Source: an uncultured Anaerolineales bacterium (GTDB lineage: Bacteria; Chloroflexota; Anaerolineae; Anaerolineales; UBA11858). From it: DNA of 64,000 nt. A program made the translations under genes and the position numbers. The stretch covers positions 5,936 to 69,935 of the forward strand of contig CAYWIC010000002.1 of the NCBI GenBank assembly GCA_964458115.1, written 5' to 3'. Shown here one piece after another: positions 3 through 14,069 of this stretch. Position 1 is the stretch's first letter; every line of letters begins with the position of its first letter. The notes under the pieces were generated by a model. The model searched no databases. It had not been told where the DNA came from and was given only the letters and a program-made list of their open reading frames with translations.

Positions 3-770
3 AAGCTTAGCCAGGGCACGGTCAAACTGGCCAGTGTTGGCCGCATTACCTGTGTAACTGCTGAACCAACGAAGCATAAACACTCCCTGAACTATCGTCA
101 TGTATTGGATGGTTTATGGTATCCCGGCACATCGACGAAATATGCTTCCTCTGCATTCCGCTGGCTACGCGATGCCGTTTGGGACGCCGTAACTTTTGGT
201 GAAATGGATGAAAACGCAGCTCAAGTATCCCCAGGGTGCGATGGTCTAATTTTTCATCCTCATCTGCAAGGGGAGTGGGTTCCATATTGGGATAACCGCT
301 TGCGAGGGGATTTTCTTGGACTGACAGTGAGACATAACAGAGCGCATCTGACTCGGGCGGTGATGGAAGGTGTCGCTTTTGCTTTGCGTGCTGGTGTGGA
401 TTTTGCCAGCCGCATGGGGCTGAGTTTCAATATTATGTCCCTGATAGGACGCGGCAGTATCAGTAATATCTGGGCTCAGATAATTGCAGATACGCTCAAC
501 CGCACAATTCGAGTACCAGCTGAAAGAGATGCAGCGTATGGTACGGCTTTGATTACTGGAATGGGTGTCAATCTGTTCCCATCGGACCCCGCCGAATTAT
601 CAAAATTAATTATCTATGAAGAAGAAAGACAGCCACTACCCGCATCGGTAGCAATCTACAATGAACTTTACGAGATCTACCAGGATGCTGATTATCTCTT
701 GAAGACGATATCCCATCGCCTGAATGATTTTGATGAAAAGTACTCAACGGTTGGGGATTCCGCGAGGTAA
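3..770 (+). CDS. FGGY-family carbohydrate kinase (xylulokinase-like), 5'-truncated by window edge
   Basis: Frame is open from base 3 (KLSQGTVKLASVGRITC...). FGGY C-terminal motifs PHLQGEWVPYWD, RAVMEGVAFALR, AAYGTALITG. Confidence 0.85.
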   Translation, partial: KLSQGTVKLASVGRITCVTAEPTKHKHSLNYRHVLDGLWYPGTSTKYASSAFRWLRDAVWDAVTFGEMDENAAQVSPGCDGLIFHPHLQGEWVPYWDNRLRGDFLGLTVRHNRAHLTRAVMEGVAFALRAGVDFASRMGLSFNIMSLIGRGSISNIWAQIIADTLNRTIRVPAERDAAYGTALITGMGVNLFPSDPAELSKLIIYEEERQPLPASVAIYNELYEIYQDADYLLKTISHRLNDFDEKYSTVGDSAR

Positions 771-817
771 AGGTCGGATTTGGTGATTTCCCGCAACTAG
801 GAATATGTTTTGGAGGC

Positions 818-2275
818 ATGTACGTGAAAATTAGTGAGATGCAATTTCGGATGATACTCCATGAATTGATTGCCATCGTTGGGAAGGAGCATGTCATCAC
901 ACCAGAAGCCGACCGCACTGTCTACGGCGTGGATGTTTATTGGGCGCCGCGGTTGATGATTGACCGGGGAAAATTGCCTCCCCTCGGGGATGTGATCGTC
1001 CTCCCTGCAAATACTGAGCAAGTTTCGGCGATTGTAAAGCTGGCCAATATCTATCGTATTCCAGTGATTCCCTGGGGGGGCGGTTCTGGTTCTCAGGGCG
1101 GCATTATGCCCATGTATGGCGGCATCATGTTGGATTTAAAGCGCCTCAATCTGATTACTGAGATTAATGATATTGCTGGTACGGTCACAGCTCAGGCGGG
1201 CATAAATGGATATGAGTTAGAGAATGCCCTCAACGCAGCCGGTTGGACATTGCCGCACTACCCGGCTTCGGTTCATTCTGCAACCCTGGGTGGGTATCTG
1301 GCATGCCGGGGATCTGGTACCGTCTCGACGAAATACGGCAAGGCCGAGGATATGGTGCTTTCGATGCAAGTGGTTTTGCCCACTGGTGAAATTATTCAGA
1401 CCTTGCCGGTTCCCAATCATGCTGCTGGTCCTGGCATCTTGCAGTTGTTTGTAGGAGCCGAGGGCAGTTATGGCATCATCACCGAAGTTACCATGCGCCT
1501 GGAGCGCCTGCCAGAAGTGCGCCGCTTCCGCTCATTCTTGTTCCCAGATATGGGTGCCGGACTGGATGCCGGGCGCAATATCATGCTAGACCGCTTACAG
1601 CCCCTGGTGATCCGCCTATATGACGAGCGCGCCACCATCAAGACCGTGAAGCGTGTGCTCGGACAGGATGTCGATTCAGGTTCGTATATGGTGATTGGTT
1701 TCGACGGCTTTGAAGACATCGTTGATGCCCAGGAACGCCATGCTTTCGAGATCATTGATCGCTATGGTGCAGAAGATCTGGGGGCCGAGGCCGGCCGAAA
1801 TTGGTGGGAACACCGCTACGATTTCTACTTCCCACCCAAGGTTTTAGATTTCCCCTGGATGTTCGGCACCCTGGACACTGTGGCCACCTTTGACAAGTTG
1901 GAACCACTCTACTGGGCCAAGAAGGAAGCCCTGGAAGAGGCCTATAAAGAATGGGATCTGTTTTACTACGCTCATTTTTCGCATTGGTATTTGTGGGGAG
2001 TGATGGCCTACGACCGCTTCATTATCGAGAAGCCTCCCGAAAATCCCGACGAAGCGCTGGCCTTACATGATGAAGTCTGGAACCTGGCCGTAAAGGTCAA
2101 CCTGGAATATGGTGGTGTGATCAACGAGCATCATGGCGTGGGATTGAAACTGTCCCGCCATGTACGGGAACAGTTTGGTGCTTCATTCCAGGTTCTCGAA
2201 GGATTGAAAAATACCCTCGATCCCTACCATTTGATGAATCCTGGCAAGATGGGTTTTGGGCCTCCGCGATTATAA
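818..2275 (+). CDS. FAD-binding oxidoreductase (GlcD / alkyl-DHAP-synthase-like, FAD-linked oxidase family)
   Basis: PWGGGSGSQGG FAD loop, HYPASVHSATLGGYLA, GAEGSYGIITE, C-terminal NEHHGVG and MNPGK. Confidence 0.88.
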   Translation: MYVKISEMQFRMILHELIAIVGKEHVITPEADRTVYGVDVYWAPRLMIDRGKLPPLGDVIVLPANTEQVSAIVKLANIYRIPVIPWGGGSGSQGGIMPMYGGIMLDLKRLNLITEINDIAGTVTAQAGINGYELENALNAAGWTLPHYPASVHSATLGGYLACRGSGTVSTKYGKAEDMVLSMQVVLPTGEIIQTLPVPNHAAGPGILQLFVGAEGSYGIITEVTMRLERLPEVRRFRSFLFPDMGAGLDAGRNIMLDRLQPLVIRLYDERATIKTVKRVLGQDVDSGSYMVIGFDGFEDIVDAQERHAFEIIDRYGAEDLGAEAGRNWWEHRYDFYFPPKVLDFPWMFGTLDTVATFDKLEPLYWAKKEALEEAYKEWDLFYYAHFSHWYLWGVMAYDRFIIEKPPENPDEALALHDEVWNLAVKVNLEYGGVINEHHGVGLKLSRHVREQFGASFQVLEGLKNTLDPYHLMNPGKMGFGPPRL

Positions 2276-2285
2276 CGGTGTAATC

Positions 2286-3389
2286 ATGAGTCGATTATTA
2301 GAACATCAACAAGCCTTATATGAACTACGCTTCTCACCGATGTGCAGACCGGCCGCCGAAGTAGCCAACTTCACGCAGCTAGAGAGCCACTCTGTGCGCT
2401 CCCGCACGATGATCATGTGGCGAGTTTGCGCCGGCCACCTGACATGGGGGCCGCGTGAAGTGGAGCTTCTTTATGAATCCACATTGGACAGCATCAGCGA
2501 AGCCTTCGATGTATTCCATTACCCCGTTAGCCAGTATATGCTGGACGCCCGGGCGGATGTTTGGGAAGCGGGGTTGGCCCCACAGAATGTAAAGGATGTC
2601 GTAAGCAGCGCATCCGAGAAATCGGTTGACGCGCTACCCAAAGCCAGCGCAGATGTGCTGCTGCTGGGCGGTGAGATCGCCCAAGCGGAAGGGGCTGACT
2701 TTTCGGAGACGCTCACTAATAAATTGCCTGATATTCCTCTTTGGGTTACCCCAAGCGGCGTGCTGCCTTATGTCCTGGGCGCTCAAGATATCGCCAGGGC
2801 GCAGGCCGAGGTGATCGTAAATGGCATCCAGGAATCGGGTGCCAAAACGGTCATCGCCGATGGACCTGAAACCGCCTGGGGATTGACGAAAGTATTTCCC
2901 ACGCTAGGTGTTGACCTGCCCAATGGCGTGCAAGTGCAATTGCTATCGGACTATCTTGAGAAGAATGTGGAGGTCAAGAGTAAAGGTACTGTCAAAACGA
3001 TGGTGCATGACAGCCGTCCGGCTTGTCTGATTGCCGATGAACTGCCCAATCACCTGGCCGTGATGCCTGGCTATCTTGAAGATGAAGCTGTGTTTGGCAA
3101 GGGTCTGGTTTTCGACGCTCCCCGGCAGATCGTTGATGCCCTGGGTGGGGAAAGGGTGTATGGTGCCTGGACGCGTTGTCTGGCGAAAACTTGCGGCGCG
3201 GATGACGGGTTATGGCTGACTTATCCTGACCTGGCCAAGGGCTTAGCCTGGCAGCGGTTGGCTTATGCCAAAGAGCTGGGGGCCGAGAAGATCGTCGCCG
3301 ATTCGCCATTGTGCGCGGCATATTTGTCTGCTCAGGCTGGTGAAGATGATCCCGCAGTTTATTGGCTGCCAGAATTGGTTTTGGCATAG
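2286..3389 (+). CDS. GlcF/HdrD-like (Fe-S)-binding/CCG-domain protein with most Cys ligands substituted
   Basis: Degenerate ferredoxin motifs (LRFSPMCRPAAE; YESTLDSISEAFD) and CCG remnants (HDSRPAC, KTCGADDG, ADSPLC). Directly follows the FAD oxidase. Confidence 0.7.
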   Translation: MSRLLEHQQALYELRFSPMCRPAAEVANFTQLESHSVRSRTMIMWRVCAGHLTWGPREVELLYESTLDSISEAFDVFHYPVSQYMLDARADVWEAGLAPQNVKDVVSSASEKSVDALPKASADVLLLGGEIAQAEGADFSETLTNKLPDIPLWVTPSGVLPYVLGAQDIARAQAEVIVNGIQESGAKTVIADGPETAWGLTKVFPTLGVDLPNGVQVQLLSDYLEKNVEVKSKGTVKTMVHDSRPACLIADELPNHLAVMPGYLEDEAVFGKGLVFDAPRQIVDALGGERVYGAWTRCLAKTCGADDGLWLTYPDLAKGLAWQRLAYAKELGAEKIVADSPLCAAYLSAQAGEDDPAVYWLPELVLA

Positions 3390-3504
3390 GAGTCTTTTGT
3401 GAAGGCTTTGAGAATTCTTGGTCCCGGACAAATGGCCTGGCAAGATTGGCCCGAACCTCAATAAATTCAGAGCATCTAAGCAGTCTTGACTATTGGAGAA
3501 GTAG

Positions 3505-4416
3505 ATGGCTGAAACAAGAAGCAAAAAGATAACCGATCGCAGTGGCCGGTCGTATACGTTGACATATGAAGAGATCAAGCATTGGGAGTACCAGAGCGAG
3601 TCTACCCGCCGGGTTTTACTAGACACTTTGCATCGCTACGGGCGCGGTCACTCTGGCCCTTCATTATCGTTGATAGAAATATTAACCACGCTGTACCATA
3701 AGGAATTACGTTTAGATCCATTGTTCCCTAAGTGGGAAGATCGTGATCGCTTCATCCTCTCGAAGGGGCACGGCGCTTTGGGGTTTTATTGTTCCCTGGC
3801 GCAGCGCGGACTGATTCCCATGGAAGAGTTGGCCACCTTTGAATCCCTGGGCAGCCGCTTGCAAGGGCATGTCGATTCGATCTGGCTGCCCTGGGTGGAA
3901 CTGACTACCGGCTCGCTGGGGCAGGGTTTGTCGGTTGGCTTGGGTGTAGCCCTGGGGGCTAAGAAGCTGGAGAAAGATATTCGAGCTTATGTCGTCATCG
4001 GCGATGGCGAATCCGAGGAAGGTAATATCTGGGAAGCTGCCATGGCGGCCGCGAAATTCGAGGCCGATAATTTATGCTGCATTGTGGATTTCAACGCTCT
4101 TCAGGGTGGTGTCACCTTGGAAGTGATGCCCAGTTTGGAGCCATTTGCCGATAAATGGAAGGCCTTTGGCTGGCACGTCATCGACATCCCCGGCCATGAT
4201 ATCGAGGCCCTGTTGTGCGCATATCATGAAGCCCGTCAGTCAAAAGGCAAACCGACGGTGATTATCGCCCGTACCGTCAAGGGCAAGGGGGTCTCTTATA
4301 TGGAAAACAAAGTCGAATGGCATGGCGGCACGGTTTCCAAGCCATTATATGAGCAGGCCATCGCAGAGATCGATAGTCGCCTGAGTGCATTGCGCGATTA
4401 CGCGGTCTGGAATTGA
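3505..4416 (+). CDS. Transketolase, N-terminal (ThDP-binding) subunit
   Basis: RFILSKGH, LQGH, GSLGQG, ThDP motif GDGE...N. Confidence 0.93.
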   Translation: MAETRSKKITDRSGRSYTLTYEEIKHWEYQSESTRRVLLDTLHRYGRGHSGPSLSLIEILTTLYHKELRLDPLFPKWEDRDRFILSKGHGALGFYCSLAQRGLIPMEELATFESLGSRLQGHVDSIWLPWVELTTGSLGQGLSVGLGVALGAKKLEKDIRAYVVIGDGESEEGNIWEAAMAAAKFEADNLCCIVDFNALQGGVTLEVMPSLEPFADKWKAFGWHVIDIPGHDIEALLCAYHEARQSKGKPTVIIARTVKGKGVSYMENKVEWHGGTVSKPLYEQAIAEIDSRLSALRDYAVWN

Positions 4417-4427
4417 GGAGACTGGTA

Positions 4428-5384
4428 GTGGATTGGGAATATTCATCCTTACGGGAAGCATTGGGTAAGACGTTGCTAGAGTTGGGCGGCGAAGTGGACA
4501 AAATGTTGGTGATCAACGCCGACCTGCGAAACTCTGTCAAGACGGTCTATTTCATGAACGCCTACCCGGAGCGCACCATAGAAGTGGGCATTGCCGAGCA
4601 GAATATGGTCGGCGTGGCAACGGGGCTTTCGATGATGGGGTTCATCCCCTTTTGCGTGACCTTCGCCCGTTTCGCCAGCAAACGTGCTGCCGACCAGATT
4701 TCGATGTGCGTGGATTATTGTCAGAATAATGTGCGTATCATCGGGGCTTATGCCGGCATCTTCACTGGCATGCAGGGCGTCAGCCAGCAGATGATCGATG
4801 ATACCGCCGCAATGCGGGCAATGCCCAATATGACCGTCATCGATACGGCCGATGCCATCGAGACGCGCGCCGTGCTGCGCTATGCCGTTGAGCACGTCGG
4901 CCCGCTCTATATCCGTGTTGGCCGGGACGAATGGCCTGTGGTCTTTGATGAGAACTATAAATTCGAGTTGGGAAAGGGGCAGTGGGTGCGCGAGGGAGGC
5001 GATGTTGTACTGATGAACTCCGGCGTGCTCTTACCTTATGCCGTTGAAGCTGCAGAAAATCTAAAGGCGGAGGGCATCGACGCAGGCGTGATAAATATGC
5101 CGACTGTCAAACCCATCGATGTAGAAATGATCAATGAAGTTTGCCGGAATGTGGGCGCTATCGTGACCCTTGAAAATCACAACGTCCAGGGCGGCTTTGG
5201 CAGTGCCGTGGCTGAAGTCGCGGCCCAAAATTACCCCACACCGATGGAATATATTGGTATTCGGAATGAATACAGCGAGTCAGCTCCAAATGATGAGTTG
5301 GCAGAAAAACATAAATTGACTGCACCGCATGTTGCTGAAGCAGCCAGGAAAGTACTTCAAAGGAAAATTGGGTTTCCAAGGTAG
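4428..5384 (+). CDS. Transketolase, C-terminal (pyrimidine-binding + C-terminal) subunit
   Basis: EVGIAEQNMVG, AMRAMPNMTV, GPLYIR, TVKPID, ENHNVQGGFG. GTG start follows GAGGAG RBS at 4415-4420. Confidence 0.92.
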   Translation: MDWEYSSLREALGKTLLELGGEVDKMLVINADLRNSVKTVYFMNAYPERTIEVGIAEQNMVGVATGLSMMGFIPFCVTFARFASKRAADQISMCVDYCQNNVRIIGAYAGIFTGMQGVSQQMIDDTAAMRAMPNMTVIDTADAIETRAVLRYAVEHVGPLYIRVGRDEWPVVFDENYKFELGKGQWVREGGDVVLMNSGVLLPYAVEAAENLKAEGIDAGVINMPTVKPIDVEMINEVCRNVGAIVTLENHNVQGGFGSAVAEVAAQNYPTPMEYIGIRNEYSESAPNDELAEKHKLTAPHVAEAARKVLQRKIGFPR

Positions 5385-5554
5385 AGAGCCTGGGTGCCTA
5401 CGGATGAGCACCGATGGAAAGGGAGATACCACTAAACTAGGTCAAGTGGTATCTCCCGGGGGCAGTAGGAGCCATCCAGAGCCGATTGTAATAATCGGAA
5501 TTCAGGCCGACCTACCCCAAGATTATAAACCATTCAAGAGTTCTTGGAGAGATA

Positions 5555-6439
5555 ATGACGGAAATTAGTATGACCAGGCAATCTTCAAAACTGAGCATGA
5601 CCACAGCAGGTGTGCTGAAACGTATCCGCCGGATTGTCGCATATCTGATGGTGATCATTGTGGTCGGATCGATGGCTTTCCCTCTGATATGGATGGTGCT
5701 TTCATCGTTCAAGCCAGAACGTGAACTCTTGGGATATCCGCCAACATTTATTCCAAACGAATGGAGCCTGGCCGCTTATCAGGCATTATTCAAAACAGAT
5801 TTCAAAATATGGTTCCAAAATAGCTTGTTGGTTTCTGTTGTAGCGACGTTTACGGCAGTGCTTATCTCTGCGTTTGGAGCCTATGTATTATCGCGGGCAC
5901 GTTATCGCTTCGTAGATTGGTTTTCCAGAATTGTTCTTTTTACCTATCTCTTACCCACCATTCTTTTGATCATTCCAATATTCAGGATCGTTATCACGCT
6001 CAATCTGGCCAATTCCTTGGGTGGGTTGATCGTTGTTTACAATTCCATTTTGCTCCCCTATGGTTTGTGGACGTTACGCTCCTATTTTGCGGGCGTCCCT
6101 CATGAAATTGAAGAATCAGCCTTAATTGATGGAGCCACGCGTTTTCAAGCTTTCTATAAGGTTGTTCTTCCTCAAGCGCTTCCAGGTTTGATTGCTACGG
6201 CACTCTTTGCTTTCAATGTTTGTTGGAATGAGTATCTCTTCGCTGTCATCCTGATAGGCAGCGGAAAGAAGTGGACATTAAATCCAGGTATTCAATCATT
6301 AGTGGGAGCATTATCGGATCAGTCTATGACGGTTGTCATGGCTGCATCAACATTGGCTACTGTTCCAGTTATCCTGCTCTTTTCGATTCTACAGAGATAT
6401 TGGGTAGCTGGTTGGGGCAGTGGAGCTGTAAAAGGCTAA
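5555..6439 (+). CDS. Carbohydrate ABC transporter permease (MalG-like)
   Basis: Multiple TM segments, EAA loop EIEESALIDGA, WNEYLFA. Confidence 0.93.
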   Translation: MTEISMTRQSSKLSMTTAGVLKRIRRIVAYLMVIIVVGSMAFPLIWMVLSSFKPERELLGYPPTFIPNEWSLAAYQALFKTDFKIWFQNSLLVSVVATFTAVLISAFGAYVLSRARYRFVDWFSRIVLFTYLLPTILLIIPIFRIVITLNLANSLGGLIVVYNSILLPYGLWTLRSYFAGVPHEIEESALIDGATRFQAFYKVVLPQALPGLIATALFAFNVCWNEYLFAVILIGSGKKWTLNPGIQSLVGALSDQSMTVVMAASTLATVPVILLFSILQRYWVAGWGSGAVKG

Positions 6440-6550
6440 TGAAAACTTCATTTTTGAGTTTTCCCTCTTGAAAGGAGGTGTAGAGTATCCAGAGTCGATT
6501 GGTTAGTCCTGACGAGTTTTGAACACAATTCTAATGATAAGGAGTAGAAA

Positions 6551-7951
6551 ATGAATTTCCGAAAAAAATTCTCAATGGTTGCAATTTTGCTTGTGCTGTC
6601 GATGGCACTTTCCGCGTTTGCACCTATGGCTGAAGATCCCGATGGGCCAATCGTCATCCCATTCATTACACAGGAAACCGATGCCGCATCAATTGCCGTC
6701 TATCAGACCATCATCAAGCAATACCAGACTGACAATCCTGGAATAGTGATCGACCTGGTCGTCACCAGTGACCCTGACACGATGGGCGAGCGCATGATCG
6801 CAGCTGCTGCTGTCGGTGCTGATATGGGCATTGTCTCCATCAATGCAGCCCAATTCCAGGAGTTCTACGATGCTGGTCTCCTTTTAGCCCTCGATCCTGT
6901 AATCGAAAGTATTGGTGAAGAAAATTTCATTCCTGGATCGCTGGTTTATGGCAGTGATGAAAGTGTATATATGATGGGCTACAACGGTGGCGCATACGGC
7001 GTTCTGTGGGTCAACACCGAGATGCTTGATGCAGCCGGATTAGCTCTCCCCTCCTCCTATGAAGAAATTCTGGCCGCGGCTGAAGCCATGACCGTAGATA
7101 CCGATGGCGATGGTGAAATCGATCAATATGGTATCGCCCTGCCCGCTCAGGCGCATGCCATGACCGGCTATGTGCTCATGGATATGATGTACGAAAATTG
7201 TGCCGGTTTCTTCAACGGCCAGGGTGAGGTGATCTTCGACCATCCCAATACTTTGGAAGCTATTCAACGCTATTCAGATTTGCTGCAATTCGCTCCTGAG
7301 GCTGCCAGTGCATGGGCCTGGGGCGATGTGATCAATGCCGTGATCGGTGAGCAGGCTGCCATGGGCTGGTACTATGGACGCCTTGGTGTGAATGCCTTCA
7401 ATGCAGATCCAGCGATACGCGACAAGTTAACCCCGATCCATTTCTATGCTGGCCCGAATTATTCGAGCTTCCAGGGATGGGATTATTTCGAGGTATACAG
7501 CGGTGTGAAGCATCCTGCCGAAACCCTAGATTTCTTGACGTACTTGATGCAGGGTCAACCCATGGTTGATTTCTTGCTGACTGTCCCCGGTCACCTGGCT
7601 GCGGCAACCTACGGTTTGGATGATGCCATTCTGGCTTCTGAGAACGAATATGTCCAGCGCTACCCGGATGACGTTCTCTTCCTGTTCGGCGAAATGGGTT
7701 ACGGAGCGAATGCATCCGTCCAGATGGGTGCCATGGATCCGTCTTCCTGTGAGATGGATTTCAGTCTGAATACGATGCCTTGGAGTTCTGCCGTGTTTGG
7801 CGCAGACAACATCCCAGGTGCCGTAATCCATCAGGTCTTCATGGGCGAAATGACTCCTGAAGAAGCCTGGAAATGGGGCGCAGAACAGTTGAAAGCTGTC
7901 TCCGATGAATGGAAAGCCGACAATCCGGATTGGGTTCCCCCCGAAGGATAA
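6551..7951 (+). CDS. Sugar ABC transporter substrate-binding protein (family 1)
   Basis: Signal peptide, LWVNTEML..AGL..P.SYEE, DTDGDGEIDQYG motif. Located between two permeases. Confidence 0.88.
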   Translation: MNFRKKFSMVAILLVLSMALSAFAPMAEDPDGPIVIPFITQETDAASIAVYQTIIKQYQTDNPGIVIDLVVTSDPDTMGERMIAAAAVGADMGIVSINAAQFQEFYDAGLLLALDPVIESIGEENFIPGSLVYGSDESVYMMGYNGGAYGVLWVNTEMLDAAGLALPSSYEEILAAAEAMTVDTDGDGEIDQYGIALPAQAHAMTGYVLMDMMYENCAGFFNGQGEVIFDHPNTLEAIQRYSDLLQFAPEAASAWAWGDVINAVIGEQAAMGWYYGRLGVNAFNADPAIRDKLTPIHFYAGPNYSSFQGWDYFEVYSGVKHPAETLDFLTYLMQGQPMVDFLLTVPGHLAAATYGLDDAILASENEYVQRYPDDVLFLFGEMGYGANASVQMGAMDPSSCEMDFSLNTMPWSSAVFGADNIPGAVIHQVFMGEMTPEEAWKWGAEQLKAVSDEWKADNPDWVPPEG

Positions 7952-7970
7952 GTCAAGGCTTCACGAGAGT

Positions 7971-7999
7971 TGAGGGAGATCAAATCTTGATCTCCCTCA
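7971..7999 (+). terminator. Stem-loop after SBP gene (terminator or mRNA-stabilising hairpin)
   Basis: TGAGGGAGATCA-aatct-TGATCTCCCTCA, a perfect 12-bp stem with no strong U-tract. Confidence 0.6.
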
Positions 8000-8087
8000 T
8001 CCTATTATCGCTATTGTAGTGAGGAGATAACTACTCAGTACTTCAGAGTATTCTCATCAAAACTGATTTGCTTCTTGAGGAGTTTGA

Positions 8088-8984
8088 ATGAAGCTAACCC
8101 GCAAACAACAAGATTTACTATTTGTTGTCCTGATGATTTCCCCGGCTGTAATCACCCTTGTGGCCCTGAATGTTTATCCCTTATATGCTGCCCTGGAGAG
8201 TAGCTTCTATAAAATCCATCCGGTTACACGTGAAATGAGCTGGAAAGGCCTAGCAAATTTTCAGAAATATATTGTCAACCTTGATTTCTGGAAGGCAGTC
8301 TGGCGCTCTGCATTGTGGACGGTTGGTGGCGTATCTTTGCAAATAATCGCCGGAATTGCCATTTCTCTTTTATTGCATACCGAATTTAAAGGAAGATCAA
8401 TTGCGCGTGCAGTTGTCTTATGGCCTTATGTTGTCCCAACTGTGGTTGCAGCGGTTCAGTGGCGCTCGATGCTAAACCCGTTGACTGGCATTATAAATTA
8501 TATTTTCCATGATCAACTTGAGATTCTTCCGGATATCAACTGGTTAGGCGATTCGGATTATGCGATGTGGGCCGTTATTGGCATGGGAGCTTGGAAACTG
8601 GTACCCTTTATGATCATCATGTTCCTGGCGCGTTTGCAAACCACTTCTCCGGAGCTTTATGATGCTGCCAAGATCGATGGTGCTAATCCCTGGCAAGAAT
8701 TCTGGCATATCACAATCCCTTGGCTGCGTCCGACGATCCTTGTGGCAGCATTGCTGCGCACGATGTGGCTTTTTAAAGACTTCGACATGATCTACCTGAT
8801 GACCCAAGGCGGTCCATTAGCTTCCACCCGAACACTCCCGTTGCTGATCTTCTTTGCTGCCTTTGATAAGCGCAAGATGGGTGAAGCGGCTGCTATTAGC
8901 ATAATGATGTTGGTGCTAATCTTGCCGCTGGCTTTTTTCATCATGCGCTATTACAAAAAATCGGAAGATCAGATTACACTTTAG
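8088..8984 (+). CDS. Carbohydrate ABC transporter permease (MalF/UgpA-like)
   Basis: EAA loop ELYDAAKIDGA, FDMIYLMTQGGP, TM segments. Confidence 0.93.
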   Translation: MKLTRKQQDLLFVVLMISPAVITLVALNVYPLYAALESSFYKIHPVTREMSWKGLANFQKYIVNLDFWKAVWRSALWTVGGVSLQIIAGIAISLLLHTEFKGRSIARAVVLWPYVVPTVVAAVQWRSMLNPLTGIINYIFHDQLEILPDINWLGDSDYAMWAVIGMGAWKLVPFMIIMFLARLQTTSPELYDAAKIDGANPWQEFWHITIPWLRPTILVAALLRTMWLFKDFDMIYLMTQGGPLASTRTLPLLIFFAAFDKRKMGEAAAISIMMLVLILPLAFFIMRYYKKSEDQITL

Positions 8985-8992
8985 TTGAAGAG

Positions 8993-9733
8993 ATGACGAT
9001 CATCGACACCCACTGCCATTTTGGGACATCTATCCTTTCTGATTTGAATATTACCAGAGAAGATTTGGTGAATTCCATGAACGAATTTGGGGTTCATCTT
9101 GCTTTGGTGATGCCTCATGCTGTTAGTGATGATCCTGTTTTCGAACATGACCGAGTTGCCGACCTGTGTAGCCAATATCCAAAACGCTTTCGCGGCATTG
9201 TCAATCTGACTCCCTTGTGGGGTGAAGACAAGTATTATGTAGAAGCTCAACGTTGCGTAAAAGAACTGGGCTTTGTGGCGATAAAGCTAAACCCCATGCA
9301 GCACCTGGCATCGCCAATCATGAAGAATGCCCACAAGGTTTTTTCAACTGCGTCCGCCTTGGGTGTGCCGGTGATCGTTCATACCGGCCTGGGGGTACCC
9401 TGGGCTTTGCCGAGTTTGTGCATCCCGCCAGCAAGGCAGTTTTCAGACACCCCAATTATTCTTGCTCACGCAGGTTACGGAGTCTACACAGCGGAGGCCT
9501 ATGTGGCTGCCAGCGTCTGTGAGAATATTTATCTGGAGCCCTCCTGGTGTACAGTAGAAGACCTGAAAATGTTGACCAACAAAGTGGGCGCGCAGCGCAT
9601 CATGTTGGGCTCCGATGTGCCTGCTAATCTGCCAGTGGAACTGGCAAAATATCGCGCCGCTAATCTATCTGATACCGAACTAGAAAATTGTTTCTGGAAG
9701 ACCGCAAACCGGATGTTTCAACTCAATTGGTAG
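8993..9733 (+). CDS. Amidohydrolase_2 family TIM-barrel metallohydrolase (possible lactonase/decarboxylase)
   Basis: IDTHCH (HxH), VHTG, LAHAG, GSDVP. Confidence 0.85.
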   Translation: MTIIDTHCHFGTSILSDLNITREDLVNSMNEFGVHLALVMPHAVSDDPVFEHDRVADLCSQYPKRFRGIVNLTPLWGEDKYYVEAQRCVKELGFVAIKLNPMQHLASPIMKNAHKVFSTASALGVPVIVHTGLGVPWALPSLCIPPARQFSDTPIILAHAGYGVYTAEAYVAASVCENIYLEPSWCTVEDLKMLTNKVGAQRIMLGSDVPANLPVELAKYRAANLSDTELENCFWKTANRMFQLNW

Positions 9734-9783
9734 CAGTAGTCCAAAATATCCGCTAAGAAGAAAAATAATTGTAGGAGCAAATA

Positions 9784-10536
9784 ATGATCGATCTATCTGG
9801 AAAAGTGGCTTTAGTTACGGGTTCCTCGCGTGGCGTGGGATCTGGCATTGCCCCGGTGTTAGCAGCTTGTGGCGCAGATATTGCCATCAATTATCGCTCT
9901 GCCGGAGAAAAGGCGGAGCAGGTTGCTATACAAGCCAGGGAAGCCGGAGTGCGTGCAGTTACCATTCAAGCGGATGTAACCGAACCGACTGAGGTAGAGC
10001 GGCTGGTTCAAGAGGTTGAGGGCAAACTCGGTCCCGTCGATATCCTGGTCAATAATGCCGGCTTCAATTGGCTGAAACCAATCTTGGAGATCTCTGTTGA
10101 GGATTGGGATCGCACATTGAATTTGAATTTGCGTTCCCATTTCTTATCATCGAAGGCAGTCTTGCCGAGGATGATGGAGCGCGGCTGGGGGCGCATCATA
10201 GGGATATCATCCATCTCTGGGCAGCGTGGGGGCCTCTCTGGCGATGTGGACTATTCCGCTGCCAAAGCGGGTATCCTGGGATTAACACGCTGCCTGGCAC
10301 GACATGTGGCCGAGCATGGCATCACGGTAAATGCTGTGGCTTTGGGATATATCTGGACCGATGGTTTGGTTGCTGTGCCCGAGGAGAAGCGTAATCGCCT
10401 CACCAGCCAGATTCCGCTTGGCAGATTTGGTTCTGTTGATGAATGTGGTGAGGTTGTGGCTTTCTTGGCCTCGGATGCCGCGGCTTATATCACAGGAGAA
10501 GTCATGACTGTTAATGGTGGCGTGCACATTGCTTGA
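9784..10536 (+). CDS. SDR family NAD(P)-dependent oxidoreductase (FabG-like)
   Basis: TGSSRGVG, NNAG, YSAAK, ITGEVMTVNGG. Confidence 0.92.
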   Translation: MIDLSGKVALVTGSSRGVGSGIAPVLAACGADIAINYRSAGEKAEQVAIQAREAGVRAVTIQADVTEPTEVERLVQEVEGKLGPVDILVNNAGFNWLKPILEISVEDWDRTLNLNLRSHFLSSKAVLPRMMERGWGRIIGISSISGQRGGLSGDVDYSAAKAGILGLTRCLARHVAEHGITVNAVALGYIWTDGLVAVPEEKRNRLTSQIPLGRFGSVDECGEVVAFLASDAAAYITGEVMTVNGGVHIA

Positions 10537-10582
10537 GCAAAAAAACTCGAAGGAACAACTCAATCTCAAGGAGAATAGCCCG

Positions 10583-10631
10583 AAAAATAGGTGTGCAGGG
10601 GGCGCAGCGCACCCCATGCACACCTATTTTT
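10583..10631. repeat. Long intergenic palindrome (family A, copy 1)
   Basis: AAAAATAGGTGTGCA...TGCACACCTATTTTT arms around GGGGGCGCAGCGCACCCC. Confidence 0.9.
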
Positions 10632-10676
10632 TGGAAATTTTCTCTCGAAGTAATATACTTTTCTATGAAAGCATAT

Positions 10677-11702
10677 ATGACCAAAACTAAAAAACTCAGA
10701 GTCGGCTTTATCGGCTGCGGCAGACATGCTACCAAGGTGCTCTACCCCAGCCTGCGTTATTCTCATATCAACCTGGTCGCCGTGTGCGATCTGGATGAGC
10801 GTCTGGCGAAACGCAACGCCCAATGGTTTGGGGCGGAAAACTATTACACAGACTACCAGCGCATGCTCAGTGAATCTCAGTTAGATGCAGTGATCATCGT
10901 CACGGGGCCTGCCAGTCATGCCAGTTTGGCAGGAGAAGTTTTGTCTCGGGATATCCCAGTATTCATAGAGAAACCCCCGGCATATACTTTGGCAGAAGCT
11001 GAGGATCTTTTGGAACTGAGTATGAGGAAGGGAATTCCCGTCACGGTCGGGATGATGAAGCGCTGGGCTCCGGCATACCAGCGAGTGAAAGCAATTATCG
11101 CAGAAAATGAATTCGGGGCAATTAGCCACATTCAGGCCACGTTCAGGGTGGGCAATAAGCTCTGCTCAGGGTATGCGCTGCTGTTAGATGCCGGTATCCA
11201 CATCCTCGATCTGGTTGACTTTCTTGGTGGCGGTATTGATTCAATCCAATGTGAAAAATACCAGGGAGAAATAGGCATTGCCTATGCCCTCACATTGCGA
11301 TTTTCAGGTGGCGCGATTGGAAATGTTCATATATCCGACCAAGGTTCCTGGTCTTATGCCAATGAGTCTGTTGAAATAACCGGCTGTGGTGCTTTTGTGC
11401 GCGCTGAGAACCTGACTTCCGTGAGCTATACTAGAAAAGACGGCACAATATCCGTTTATGATCTAGGTTTCTCGATCCCACAAAATCAAAATAATAGCCT
11501 GTTCATCCAAGGATACGCACACCAATTTCAGGCCTGGTCACAGGCTTTACTCAGTGGCAACGAGCCTGAATCGACCCTGGAGGATAGTTGTCGTGCGATT
11601 GGCCTGATTAAGACCCTTGAACCTGATCAAGAATATTCGAAGAAGCCACAGCATTTCCCACATTGGCAGGCTGAAGAAGCCTGGCTAAATGTTGAAGATT
11701 GA
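10677..11702 (+). CDS. Gfo/Idh/MocA family oxidoreductase
   Basis: RVGFIGCG Rossmann fold, EKP, DAGIHILD. The longer ORF start (10533) runs through the palindrome and is unlikely. Confidence 0.9.
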   Translation: MTKTKKLRVGFIGCGRHATKVLYPSLRYSHINLVAVCDLDERLAKRNAQWFGAENYYTDYQRMLSESQLDAVIIVTGPASHASLAGEVLSRDIPVFIEKPPAYTLAEAEDLLELSMRKGIPVTVGMMKRWAPAYQRVKAIIAENEFGAISHIQATFRVGNKLCSGYALLLDAGIHILDLVDFLGGGIDSIQCEKYQGEIGIAYALTLRFSGGAIGNVHISDQGSWSYANESVEITGCGAFVRAENLTSVSYTRKDGTISVYDLGFSIPQNQNNSLFIQGYAHQFQAWSQALLSGNEPESTLEDSCRAIGLIKTLEPDQEYSKKPQHFPHWQAEEAWLNVED

Positions 11703-11713
11703 AAGGGTGATAA

Positions 11714-12694
11714 ATGCCTGATACACATGCCAGTGTCGTAGTCAGCGGAGTGATTGTTAGCCCCGAGATCAGTCTGCACTGGGAAAAACTCAAGCAGCAA
11801 ACAGATTTGACCATCCTGGAAGAGAATACTTCTCAGGCTCTGCATCAGGCGTTGCGAGATGCTGAAGTTTTAATCATCCGCCCAATCATGCCGGTATCCA
11901 GGAAGATGATCGAAGCGGCTGATAACTTGCGGGGGATCGTTGTCTGGGGAGTGGGATATAACACTATCGATGTTCCAGCGGCAACAGAAAGCGGTCTGCC
12001 GGTGGTCACGCTGCCTGTCTTTCTGGCATCAATAGCCGAGGCGGTAGTTTATTACCTCTTTTCGATTACCAAAAAGTATCAGCACCTCAATAATTTGGCC
12101 CGAACGGGACAGCGGCCTACATTGCATGATCGCAGCGATGCGCTCGAAGGCAAAGTGTTGGGCTGCATTGGCCTGGGGCGTATCGGCAGCCGGGTAGCTC
12201 GCATTGCTCAGGCTCTTGATATGCAAGTTATTGTATTTGACCCCTTTCTAGACTCAGCACAGGTCGCTGGACGTGATCTGTCTCTAGTTTCACTCGATGA
12301 GCTGCTGAAACGATCCCATTTTGTCTCATTGCATGCACCCCTGACTGCTGAAAACCAGCATCTGATCGACGCCGTTGCCCTGGAAAAAATGCGGTCGGAT
12401 GCCTACCTCATCAATCTGGCACGGGGGGGCTTGGTGGACGAAGCTGCGTTATTCCGCGCCCTGACCGATGGCCAGATTGCCGGCGCTGCCCTGGACACTT
12501 TTGAAATTGAGCCAGTTTCTCCTGATAATCCACTCTTAACCCTGGATAATGTCTGGGCGACGCCGCATTATCTGGGAGCAACCTGGGAAGGCCTTGCTCA
12601 ATTGGCTTCAGCAGCCCAAGATGTCACTCTAAAGCTGCTAAAGGGTCAATATCCAGGATATAACATCGTCAACCCAGAAGTGTATCAAGAATAA
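11714..12694 (+). CDS. D-isomer-specific 2-hydroxyacid dehydrogenase
   Basis: GCIGLGRIG, HAPLT, NLARG, DTFEIEP, TPHY (catalytic R/E/H present). Confidence 0.92.
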   Translation: MPDTHASVVVSGVIVSPEISLHWEKLKQQTDLTILEENTSQALHQALRDAEVLIIRPIMPVSRKMIEAADNLRGIVVWGVGYNTIDVPAATESGLPVVTLPVFLASIAEAVVYYLFSITKKYQHLNNLARTGQRPTLHDRSDALEGKVLGCIGLGRIGSRVARIAQALDMQVIVFDPFLDSAQVAGRDLSLVSLDELLKRSHFVSLHAPLTAENQHLIDAVALEKMRSDAYLINLARGGLVDEAALFRALTDGQIAGAALDTFEIEPVSPDNPLLTLDNVWATPHYLGATWEGLAQLASAAQDVTLKLLKGQYPGYNIVNPEVYQE

Positions 12695-12790
12695 ATTCAA
12701 CCACTCAGGACATCGAGCGTGAATTTCCGAACAAACAGATGTGCACGGGCTGTGTAGTTGCCTCTTGCACATCTACACAGGAGCAGAACT

Positions 12791-13525
12791 ATGATTATCG
12801 ACTGCGAACTTTACTTACTCGATTTTCCAGTTGCCGGACGGATTTACACAATTCCTGACTTTGAGAATATGTTGGATGAAGCCAATATTGATAAAGCTGT
12901 GCTTATGCCTCCCATTACGCTAAAACCTGATAATCAATGGATGGTTGAGCAAATCAAAGACAACCCACGCTTTATCCCCTGCGCCATGCATAATCCTCAC
13001 TTTGGCGCTGAAGCCGTCTCCGATCTTGAAATTGGAGTGCGTGAGCGGGGTATCAAAGGCTTGAAACTTAACCCGACCAAACATGGCTTTCATGCCGCCT
13101 CTAAGCTTGTCTATCCGCTAATGGAAAAATGCGCTGAGTTAGATATTCCTGTTTCGATTCATTCTGAAGGAGGTTACGCTCACCCCCTGGTTATTGCTGC
13201 GTTAGCTAGGGCATTTCCGGATGTACCAATCATCATGGACCACATGGGGTACCGTTACTGGGTTGCTGATGCTATCGAAGCGGCGCGGCAAGCGCACAAT
13301 ATCTATCTGGCAACAACCGCGGTCATGGAACCCCATTTCATCAAGCTGGCTATTGACGATATTGGCGTGGACCGGATCGTTTTCGGCTCAAATGGCCCCA
13401 TCACAGTTCCAAGAATACAAGTAGACGTGATCAAATTCCTGGATCTTTCTCCAGAAGATGAAAACAAAATCATGGGTGGGACGCTAGAGAAATTATATAA
13501 AATTGATCAACAAGAATCATATTAA
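12791..13525 (+). CDS. Amidohydrolase_2 family protein with degenerate metal site
   Basis: Paralog-like fold motifs (IHSEG, MDHMG, RIVFGSN) but IDCELY replaces IDxHxH. Confidence 0.78.
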   Translation: MIIDCELYLLDFPVAGRIYTIPDFENMLDEANIDKAVLMPPITLKPDNQWMVEQIKDNPRFIPCAMHNPHFGAEAVSDLEIGVRERGIKGLKLNPTKHGFHAASKLVYPLMEKCAELDIPVSIHSEGGYAHPLVIAALARAFPDVPIIMDHMGYRYWVADAIEAARQAHNIYLATTAVMEPHFIKLAIDDIGVDRIVFGSNGPITVPRIQVDVIKFLDLSPEDENKIMGGTLEKLYKIDQQESY

Positions 13526-13763: not shown

Positions 13764-14069
13764 GAATTCACCACAGGAAATCCCAGACTCCCAAGGCGCA
13801 TAGTATCTTTGTAAACTGGGAAGGGGATTTAATATAGGCGTTTCAGGAAACGCCGTGAAACTACCCAGATTTAGGGGAGCCCCCGAAAATTCTTATAGAC
13901 CCATAATCAAATGTTCACCAAATGATTTATTAATCATGTAAAATTGATTGGATAGAATTGAGCGCAGCCCAATTTCCAACATCTATTGCTAGCTATCTTG
14001 AAGCTCAGATCTCCGTCAACTTGTCAGACGGGGAAATCTAATGAGTTTTTACAAAGTGAGAATTATTCG

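Follow-up and report, generated by a model that had tools for sequence, protein, structure and literature searches.

In the GlpK-GlpD/GlpABC systems and in EryA-EryB of Brucella, an FGGY kinase acts first and a polyol-phosphate dehydrogenase that depends on FAD acts second, and GlpC is a subunit of the CCG type. The transketolase route for D-apiose consists of ApsI, AplK and AptAB (Carter et al., 2018, as related in PMC13001218 and PMC13753588). An apiose cluster validated by growth is described from E. coli SE15; in this species the task of the apiose isomerase is thought to fall to oxidoreductases (PMC13001218). The closest known system to the one presented here is the ygc cluster of E. coli K-12 (ygcNO-ygcP-ygcQR-ygcS-ygcU-ygcW-yqcE-ygcE), itself uncharacterised; a literature search on ygcU returned mentions in omics studies and no functional characterisation. 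Here, an operon at positions 3-13525 of a 64,000-nucleotide stretch of DNA (the window) from an uncultured Anaerolineales bacterium was analysed. The window corresponds to positions 5936-69935 of contig CAYWIC010000002.1 (C2), and the annotation was extended to the 5.9 kb that precede it on that contig. With a probability of about one half, the operon is controlled by IclR and serves the catabolism of a small carbohydrate, most likely a C4-C5 polyol or ketose, possibly branched, that would be degraded by way of a kinase, a flavoenzyme and a transketolase. Judged by its genes, no characterised pathway matches it. The preliminary description of this DNA had proposed an unassigned carbohydrate catabolic operon, and that much stands, since the operon is coherent and without a characterised counterpart; the lead to D-apiose catabolism that accompanied the proposal does not (E. 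coli AplK, 24% identity; AptA and AptB, 41% and 35%).

The genes can be arranged in three layers. The first, a module conserved across genomes, comprises a metal-cupin, a dedicated XylB-like FGGY kinase, a flavoenzyme (FADox) of the type of alkyl-dihydroxyacetone-phosphate synthase (ADPS) and YgcU, and a coupled partner protein with a GlcF fold. The second, particular to this sub-lineage, adds a specialised split transketolase and a polyol dehydrogenase of the Zn-dependent kind, the gene for which is deleted in the present operon. The third, lineage-specific, is made up of a CUT1 importer, a short-chain dehydrogenase/reductase (SDR), a Gfo/Idh/MocA oxidoreductase, a 2-hydroxyacid dehydrogenase and two amidohydrolases. 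Following uptake, the compound would undergo redox or isomerase tailoring, in which the accessory enzymes probably turn it into the kinase substrate, and would then be phosphorylated by the FGGY kinase. FADox and its partner would act on the phosphorylated polyol or ketol at a centre resembling dihydroxyacetone phosphate (DHAP), as in the logic of GlpK-GlpD and EryA-EryB, and lastly the transketolase would transfer a C2 ketol unit into the pentose-phosphate pathway. Gene content, conservation, fold, the state of the motifs and the non-orthology to the apiose enzymes were computed; the substrate class, the order of the steps and the chemistry of the flavoenzyme are what we infer.

The operon and its conserved module

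The scheme draws on a comparison of 28 loci, collected by a pattern scan of species-representative genomes, with gene contexts established by tblastn mapping and clustering of open reading frames (ORFs). The loci span Chloroflexota, Planctomycetota, Spirochaetota, Atribacterota and Acidobacteriota. FADox lies directly upstream of the partner in 26 of them, the exceptions (L017 and L024) being truncated by contig ends, and the two genes often overlap by 4 nt. An FGGY kinase of one supported clade is present at 15 loci and a UPF0261 protein at 7 others. As UPF0261 is a demonstrated kinase (MarK, with a kinase fold; PMC12624787), a kinase gene pairs with FADox and the partner in 22/28 loci. The regulators at the module loci are of sugar type (IclR, DeoR and GntR). 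The fixed part is thus the core, and the transporter, SDR, Gfo, 2-hydroxyacid dehydrogenase and amidohydrolases are lineage-specific, so that the earlier treatment of all 13 genes as one fixed pathway had to be given up. The arrangements observed are as follows.

Type A, 7 Chloroflexota loci: GntR, FADox, partner, IolO-like TIM barrel, UPF0261, creatininase-like protein
Type B, 4 Spirochaetota/Atribacterota loci: DeoR, SdhA-like protein, 2Fe-2S protein, creatininase-like protein, FGGY, FADox, partner, EtfB, EtfA, LctD-like protein
Type C, the window, L003, L010, L012, L017, L018 and L030: IclR, cupin, FGGY, FADox, partner, a Zn-dependent alcohol dehydrogenase (Zn-ADH; not at every locus), TktN, TktC
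Type D, L016, L019, L021, L028 and L029: DeoR, cupin, FGGY, FADox, partner, often SDR

The module is found in sediment and marine Chloroflexota, Planctomycetota, Atribacterota and Spirochaetota, and it may mark an overlooked carbon source.

Several of these loci carry further genes. In type A (L004:13574-19052, also L005, L009 and L011), the module is followed by a second GntR regulator, a putative cyclase and a molybdenum hydroxylase made up of three subunits. The hydroxylase is CoxM/CoxL-like with its large subunit split in two, and hints at a tie to N-heterocycle or aldehyde oxidation. In L020 (11470-14930) and likewise in L022, L023 and L026, the EtfB-EtfA-LctD-like trio stands directly 3' of the partner, in the order of a lactate dehydrogenase/Etf complex, and an SdhA-like flavoprotein and a 2Fe-2S protein lie upstream. 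In an Anaerolineae metagenome-assembled genome (MAG; L028:2540-6165), a DUF2961 protein and an 830-aa protein without a Pfam match occur just 5' of cupin-FGGY-FADox-partner; DUF2961 is, we presume, glycoside hydrolase family GH172. In a Planctomycetaceae MAG (L029:9-5604), a GH140 apiosidase-like gene (839-aa frame) and two Pfam-less proteins of 789 and 604 aa precede DeoR-cupin-FGGY-FADox-partner on the same strand. The 604-aa protein belongs to a family (f50) that is also present in L010 (32% identity) and absent from the genome studied here. The GH140-like and Pfam-less proteins of L029 may be novel glycosidases that set the source of the module's substrate.

A second module is present in the same genome on another contig (C11:24561-30558; L040:3561-9558). 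It contains an FGGY kinase, an aldolase of DeoC/LacD type, a 446-aa FAD oxidase, a GlcF-type protein with 18 Cys and an alcohol dehydrogenase of the medium-chain dehydrogenase/reductase (MDR) family. Its architecture is that of the operon, except that an aldolase stands where the operon has its transketolase and that the Fe-S partner is intact. To its 3' side lie an FTR-like protein, a GH4 glycosidase, a PfkB kinase and a URO-D-like protein.

In the operon itself, the ORF listing together with Pfam and NCBIfam scans confirmed the 13 co-directional genes of the families first named, all on the + strand. Upstream of the window, contig C2 encodes an IclR regulator, a cupin and the full-length kinase, and with the regulator and cupin the operon has 15 genes. 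The features are listed below; coordinates are those of the window unless C2 is given.

C2:4061-4816, upstream of the window, IclR regulator (Pfam)
C2:4841-5182, upstream of the window, 113-aa metal-cupin (Cupin_2; Pfam), its stop overlapping the kinase start
3-770, +, 3' part of the 507-aa FGGY kinase (FGGY_C; Pfam), the gene beginning at C2:5182, 753 nt before the window
818-2275, +, FADox, 485 aa (FAD_binding_4 and FAD-oxidase_C; Pfam)
2286-3389, +, partner, 367 aa, predicted GlcF/EtfD/HdrB fold, without a Pfam match (AF2/Foldseek)
3399-3464, +, remnant of a Zn-dependent MDR alcohol/polyol dehydrogenase (alignment to L003)
3505-4416, +, TktN, N-terminal, thiamine diphosphate (ThDP)-binding subunit of a split transketolase (Transketolase_N; Pfam)
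4413-5384, +, TktC, C-terminal subunit of the split transketolase (Transket_pyr and Transketolase_C; Pfam)
5555-6439, +, permease of a CUT1-type ATP-binding cassette (ABC) transporter, MalG/UgpE-like (BPD_transp_1; Pfam)
6551-7951, +, CUT1-type extracellular solute-binding protein (SBP; SBP_bac_1; Pfam)
7971-7999, +, perfect 13-bp stem-loop directly 3' of the SBP gene (RNA folding)
8088-8984, +, CUT1-type ABC permease, MalF/UgpA-like (BPD_transp_1; Pfam)
8993-9733, +, Amh1, small Amidohydro_2 enzyme (Pfam and motif reading)
9784-10536, +, SDR oxidoreductase (Pfam)
10533-11702, +, Gfo/Idh/MocA oxidoreductase (Pfam)
11714-12694, +, D-isomer-specific 2-hydroxyacid dehydrogenase (2-Hacid_dh; Pfam)
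12758-13525, +, Amh2, second Amidohydro_2 protein (Pfam), likely start ATG 12791

Intergenic gaps are short or negative, with 10 nt between FADox and the partner and an overlap of 4 nt between TktN and TktC. A promoter and terminator scan gave a signal no better than that of shuffled sequences. The stem of the stem-loop at 7971-7999 is present in both the minimum free energy and the centroid structures (z = -2.3 over a 151-nt stretch); lying within the order permease-SBP-permease, it may serve in mRNA stabilisation or partial transcription termination. The downstream neighbour, a P-type ATPase at 13986, is unrelated to the operon. Preceding IclR (L001:285-3776, on C2) are genes for a protein with an MGS-like domain, an S41 peptidase with a PDZ domain and a PD40 beta-propeller protein, which are probably unrelated as well.

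The operon had been called complete, which was not borne out: a dehydrogenase gene has been lost, and the ABC ATPase is encoded elsewhere. An intact Zn-dependent MDR dehydrogenase of 334-346 aa stands between the partner and TktN in L003, L010, L017 and L030, where the window holds just 115 bp (3390-3504). Window positions 3386-3460 align to L003:11095-11169 (57 of 75 nt), where the intact gene for the 334-aa protein begins (L003:11108-12112). The remnant at 3399-3464 comprises the first 21 codons, encoding VKALRILGPGQMAWQDWPEPQ, and then a stop; of the C-terminal part, ∼8 codons are left immediately ahead of 3505, and ∼0.9 kb is lost. By this alignment the gap is the scar of an internal deletion in the Zn-ADH gene, and a fixed deletion, a population variant and an assembly variant are all possible. 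The intact L003 enzyme is composed of ADH_N and ADH_zinc_N; its nearest models are L-idonate 5-dehydrogenase and IolM, both scoring under their cut-offs. The other MDR alcohol dehydrogenases of the genome are at most 30% identical to it.

The flavoenzyme and its cluster-less partner

By sequence, the best match to FADox in the PDB is alkyl-DHAP synthase (2uuu, E 1.5e-59); D-lactate dehydrogenase (8jdb, E 4.9e-40) and glycolate oxidase come after it. The family is tightly conserved, with a mean column identity of 78% among 22 orthologues, and its fixed motifs IRLYD, RY[DN]F, SHW[YF] and [ED]HHGVG align with MIRVYD, EKRYD, SHTY and HHHGVG of ADPS. In ADPS, R352, R447 and Y508 (Dictyostelium numbering) are reported to be required for catalysis, with mutagenesis showing the importance of the two Arg (reviewed in PMC3509576). 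The invariant Arg residues of IRLYD and RY[DN]F occupy the positions of R352 and R447; the Y508 position is Tyr in the window FADox and Phe in 7 of 24 orthologues. The metal-site motifs of GlcD and lactate dehydrogenases (IEFMD, GHxGDGNxH and GEHGIG) are absent from FADox, which reads IRLYD, HFSHWYLWG and EHHGVG instead. LctD-like paralogues in L020, L023 and L026 retain IEFMD, GHAGD and GEHGIG. The AF2 model of FADox, with a mean predicted local distance difference test score (pLDDT) of 76, matches mouse D-lactate dehydrogenase (LDHD) and ADPS equally, and the fold alone therefore does not decide the type. Neighbours of FADox in a protein atlas include E. coli YgcU (28% identity, E 4e-51); at the DNA level, a search with FADox against E. 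coli genomes returned no match.

The partner has no sequence match in Pfam, NCBIfam or the PDB, CCG alone appearing at E 0.047. Its AF2 model (pLDDT 85, predicted template modelling score 0.89) has as top Foldseek matches EtfD of M. smegmatis (9ojn), LutA (9a6l) and HdrB, and shows a ferredoxin-like helical N-domain followed by two CCG-type domains in the layout of GlcF and EtfD. The family alignment has 63% column identity and not a single invariant Cys. Orthologues contain 0-13 Cys each, and some members 0-2 in total. The motif CRFCPMCKP persists as a remnant in type B and D partners and in some members of type C; the Anaerolineales clade reads LRFSPMC[KR]P. Many Arg, Asp, Glu and His residues are invariant, which suggests a binding or structural role. 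A profile search of 1.84 billion representative proteins found 49 at E<=1e-30; the second tier of hits consists of true Fe-S proteins of ∼370 aa with 16-21 Cys and two CxxCxxCxxxC motifs. No further copy was found in 400 sampled genomes of the phylum. By these alignments, the partner descends from an Fe-S subunit, has lost the clusters and is conserved, and the possibility that it works as an Fe-S protein was rejected on its Cys content. A series of this kind, where the clusters disappear in nature and the Fe-S subunit is yet retained, offers a clean system for the roles of "pseudo-Fe-S" subunits.

How the two proteins act together can be read in other ways. It is unlikely, though worth stating, that the pair forms a non-redox, ADPS-like flavoenzyme in which oxidised FAD acts transiently as an electrophile towards a soluble ketose phosphate, and in which a substituent next to the carbonyl would be exchanged, eliminated or isomerised. 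A non-redox role would render the ancestral Fe-S relay dispensable, and the relay would have decayed stepwise, from a full Cys set through CRFCPMCKP and LRFSPMCKP to no Cys at all, with the subunit constrained as a structural or substrate-binding partner. Should this hold, chemistry of the ADPS type would be on record for the first time in the sugar metabolism of bacteria.

A quite improbable alternative is that the pair is a 2-hydroxyacid dehydrogenase of glycolate or D-lactate type and oxidises a C2 or C3 fragment released downstream, rather than acting on a sugar phosphate. The fold of FADox equals that of mouse D-lactate dehydrogenase, the partner descends from subunits of GlcF/LutA type, loci of anaerobes have EtfB-EtfA-LctD-like genes after the pair, and the module on C11 has a canonical FAD/Fe-S pair beside an aldolase. 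In FADox, however, the GlcD/lactate dehydrogenase motifs are replaced by those of ADPS type, although the adjacent LctD-like paralogue keeps them; the relay for passing electrons onward is gone; and the pair travels with a kinase and not with an aldehyde dehydrogenase. Action on a phosphorylated polyol or ketol, as proposed above, is the reading preferred here.

Kinase, transketolase and accessory enzymes

The module kinase scores 340 bits against the XylB model TIGR01312, under the cut-off of 380. The true XylB of the genome is encoded on contig C95 (587 bits), and the idea that the module kinase is the housekeeping xylulokinase was rejected. In the kinase tree, from which the partial L019 kinase was omitted, the module FGGYs form one supported clade (96/97) apart from XylB, AplK, YgcE and the other paralogues of the genome; identity is 24% both to AplK and to YgcE of E. 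coli. The clustering with the xylose or apiose pathway that the preliminary description had set out as the outcome contrary to its proposal was thus not found. An FGGY paralogue at C16:12322-13761 groups with E. coli AplK (100/100), both being long-branched; no split transketolase is encoded close to it, and it may be no more than an enzyme akin to glycerol kinase. The metal site of the cupin (HxHx3-4E...H) is kept in 11 of 11 aligned copies, and the cupin is a candidate for the missing isomerase, or for an epimerase. The statement that no isomerase is present accordingly applies to the window only.

TktN keeps the ThDP motif GDG...N (GDGESEEGN) and the His residues of the N-subunit. TktC matches the split transketolase of C. 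hydrogenoformans (6yaj; phmmer E 8e-82), and the Arg residues of its slREA and yiRvgR segments align with those of 6yaj and human transketolase, which we take to be phosphate-binding ligands. The acceptor motif differs as follows.

6yaj split transketolase: tHAGLTVGEDGASHQ
Human transketolase: sHCGVSIGEDGPSQM
TktC of the window: aYAGIFTGMQGVSQQ (GAYAGIFTGMQGVSQQ), replacing tHAGLTVGEDGASHQ
E. coli AptB: LNAGASYGPLASTHH

In the alignment to 6yaj and human transketolase, the positions of the canonical His...GEDGxTHQ are filled by Tyr, Gln and Gln; these are presumably the acceptor-binding positions H461, D469 and H473 of E. coli transketolase. The same motif (GAYAGIFTGxQGxxQQ) is found in L003, L010, L017 and L030, and the signature recurs in 118 of the 120 top TktC homologues, the other 2 giving no match. 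The TktC of L012 and L018 has a second non-canonical motif, GHAAGxSxGYAGPSHH, and is encoded beside a xylose-isomerase-like TIM barrel. The missing Asp is assumed to read the acceptor 2-hydroxyl in ordinary enzymes, and its loss with retention of the phosphate site would fit a short or branched phosphorylated donor. Biocatalysis engineers the equivalent Asp to alter acceptor scope, and a large subfamily with a fixed Tyr/Gln/Gln acceptor pocket provides natural variants relevant to it.

These features bear on the possibility that the operon is a variant of the D-apiose transketolase route, in which the cupin or oxidoreductases would yield apulose, the FGGY kinase apulose-4-phosphate and the transketolase DHAP and a C2 unit, with the flavoenzyme as an accessory. 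In both systems an FGGY kinase occurs together with a split transketolase in which the C-subunit does not carry the canonical GEDGxTHQ; AptB likewise has neither the His nor the Glu-Asp, as would fit a donor phosphorylated at C4. In L029, moreover, the gene resembling a GH140 apiosidase (PF13204, 65.8 bits) is found three genes ahead of the module and is transcribed in the same direction; the association is confined to this one planctomycete. The slot of the apiose isomerase could be filled by the metal-cupin or, as is thought of E. coli, by oxidoreductases, of which SDR and Gfo are present; xylose-isomerase-like TIM barrels adjoin the transketolase only in L012 and L018. Set against the E. 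coli SE15 cluster, from which the AplK, AptA and AptB reference sequences were taken, the kinase belongs to another clade, TktC is nearer to ordinary split transketolases than to AptB, and the SBP is of SBP_bac_1/CUT1 type where E. coli has an annotated "D-ribose ABC transporter substrate-binding protein". PF13204 was not found in this genome (85% complete) or in the genomes of L003, L010 and L012, and the apiose route as known has no step for the always-conserved FADox and partner. We regard such a variant as rather unlikely. Orthology to the apiose enzymes was rejected on the identities given above, on the separate kinase clade and on the difference between the TktC and AptB motifs.

The transporter and the remaining enzymes are less widely shared. 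The permease at 5555-6439 has an orthologue solely in L003 (90%), with weak matches in L017; the SBP has an 89% orthologue in L003, one of 28% in L017 and only distant PDB relatives (E ∼1e-14). No ABC ATPase is encoded in the window, as had been noted, and TOBE_2-type candidates are present on contigs C145, C130 and C180; CUT1 importers commonly share an ATPase encoded elsewhere. Amh1 keeps the HxH...D site (IDTHCH, GSDVP) and has a 61% orthologue in L003. Amh2 has lost the HxH (IDCELY) and the Asp (GSNGP), and its orthologue in L017 reads GSNAP; the shared Asn indicates a conserved change and not decay. Both proteins have only distant solved relatives, of decarboxylase/hydratase type, and a lactonase role, for which these relatives lend no support, was set aside. 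SDR orthologues (53-59%) lie near the core in L016, L017, L019 and L029. The Gfo protein probably starts near 10668, because its Rossmann fold begins at residue 55; it has a 49% orthologue in L017. Among the loci compared, the 2-hydroxyacid dehydrogenase occurs only in this genome. Of the accessory genes, those for the ABC transporter and Amh1 are met again in L003 alone, and those for SDR, Gfo and Amh2 in L017.

Some of these neighbours recall inositol catabolism of the Thermotoga type. A cyclitol or keto-aldonate route could be drawn in which Gfo and the MDR alcohol dehydrogenase oxidise the substrate, a hydrolase opens the ring, a TIM barrel or cupin isomerises the product and the kinase and transketolase act on a keto-sugar acid. 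Recurrent neighbours do match IolG, IolM, IolN and IolO, and Gfo enzymes turn up repeatedly (window, L003, L010 and L017). Every score is nonetheless far under the curated cut-off (Gfo against IolG, 108 of 355 bits; MDR alcohol dehydrogenase against IolM, 182 of 450; creatininase-like protein against IolN, 92 of 245; TIM barrel against IolO, 146 of 300), and the four families never stand together at one locus. Dehydratase or 2-keto-3-deoxygluconate (KDG)-type genes are missing, and the kinase is XylB-like rather than a KDG or gluconate kinase. Such a route is considered unlikely.

Very improbable, in our estimate, is a decaying or mosaic array without a single coherent function. The 21-codon stub of the dehydrogenase, the missing HxH and Asp of Amh2 and the Cys-less partner would speak for it, as would accessory genes that differ even from those of L003, the nearest relative. 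The apparent defects are, however, conserved across phyla under constraint, as seen in the column identities of the partner (63%) and FADox (78%) and in the Asn that Amh2 shares with L017; no other ORF is damaged, and the genes follow one another closely or overlap. The altered active sites pointed out earlier are thus real, family-wide traits conserved in orthologues and not sequencing noise, and the individual observations on the Cys-less partner, the transketolase motif, Amh2 and the stem-loop each held on re-examination.

A kinase-flavoenzyme-transketolase pathway for a small carbohydrate remains the preferred interpretation, and several points weigh against it. No enzyme of the operon has a characterised orthologue, and the substrate and reaction order are deduced. 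The core is absent from the 400 sampled genomes of the phylum, and the sample of contexts is small and consists of MAGs only. The transporter and four dehydrogenase/hydrolase genes are not conserved with the core and may serve a different substrate. The deletion of the Zn-ADH gene means that the pathway could be impaired in this genome. Phe at the Y508 position in part of the family makes a strict ADPS mechanism doubtful, and ADPS-like chemistry of FADox is not secure; its model is of moderate quality, and the fold search does not part ADPS from D-lactate dehydrogenase.

Comparison with known systems

ADPS (AGPS, EC 2.5.1.26) shares with FADox the motifs described above and two of its three loop His residues. 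It is longer, at 584-658 aa against 485 aa; the alignment begins at about ADPS residue 131, and by these measures FADox does not have the N-terminal extension and the lipid channel with its gating helix. FADox is also encoded in a sugar operon and not in a lipid one. The CCG subunits of GlcDEF, LutABC, EtfD and HdrB have the same overall fold as the partner, which is encoded right after a flavoprotein of the VAO family. They differ from it in that the partner lacks conserved Cys and a Pfam match, GlcE is not present and FADox does not carry the GlcD metal-site motifs. In relation to GlpK-GlpD/GlpABC and EryA-EryB, FADox belongs to the VAO/ADPS superfamily instead of the DAO/GlpD type. In the apiose route, no flavoenzyme or partner is found. 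Split transketolases also occur in sulfoquinovose transketolase routes (SqwGH), to which the preliminary description had pointed; sulfo-related Pfam families are absent among the 15 operon genes. A literature search on apulose, on FGGY with transketolase, or on bacterial ADPS with FGGY gave nothing relevant.

The likeness to the ygc cluster lies in the combination of an ADPS-type FAD-linked oxidoreductase, an FGGY kinase, an SDR and transporters, and in the motifs of YgcU (ARLYD, SHSY and HHHGIG), which match those of FADox. As in the ygc cluster, a YgcU-type flavoenzyme stands beside an FGGY kinase, here with the kinase directly upstream. The ygc locus also holds Etf proteins and an anti-terminator regulator. 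E. coli uses proteins like Etf and Etf-QO and has no GlcF-like partner, cupin or transketolase; Etf or Etf-QO partners are found neither in the window nor in L001, and EtfB/EtfA occur only in the Spirochaetota and Atribacterota loci. In addition, YgcU is not orthologous to FADox and lacks the Arg at the position of ADPS R447, and the kinases belong to unrelated FGGY subfamilies (24%). The module, shared across phyla, ties to these long-unassigned E. coli genes, and solving one member may unlock many.

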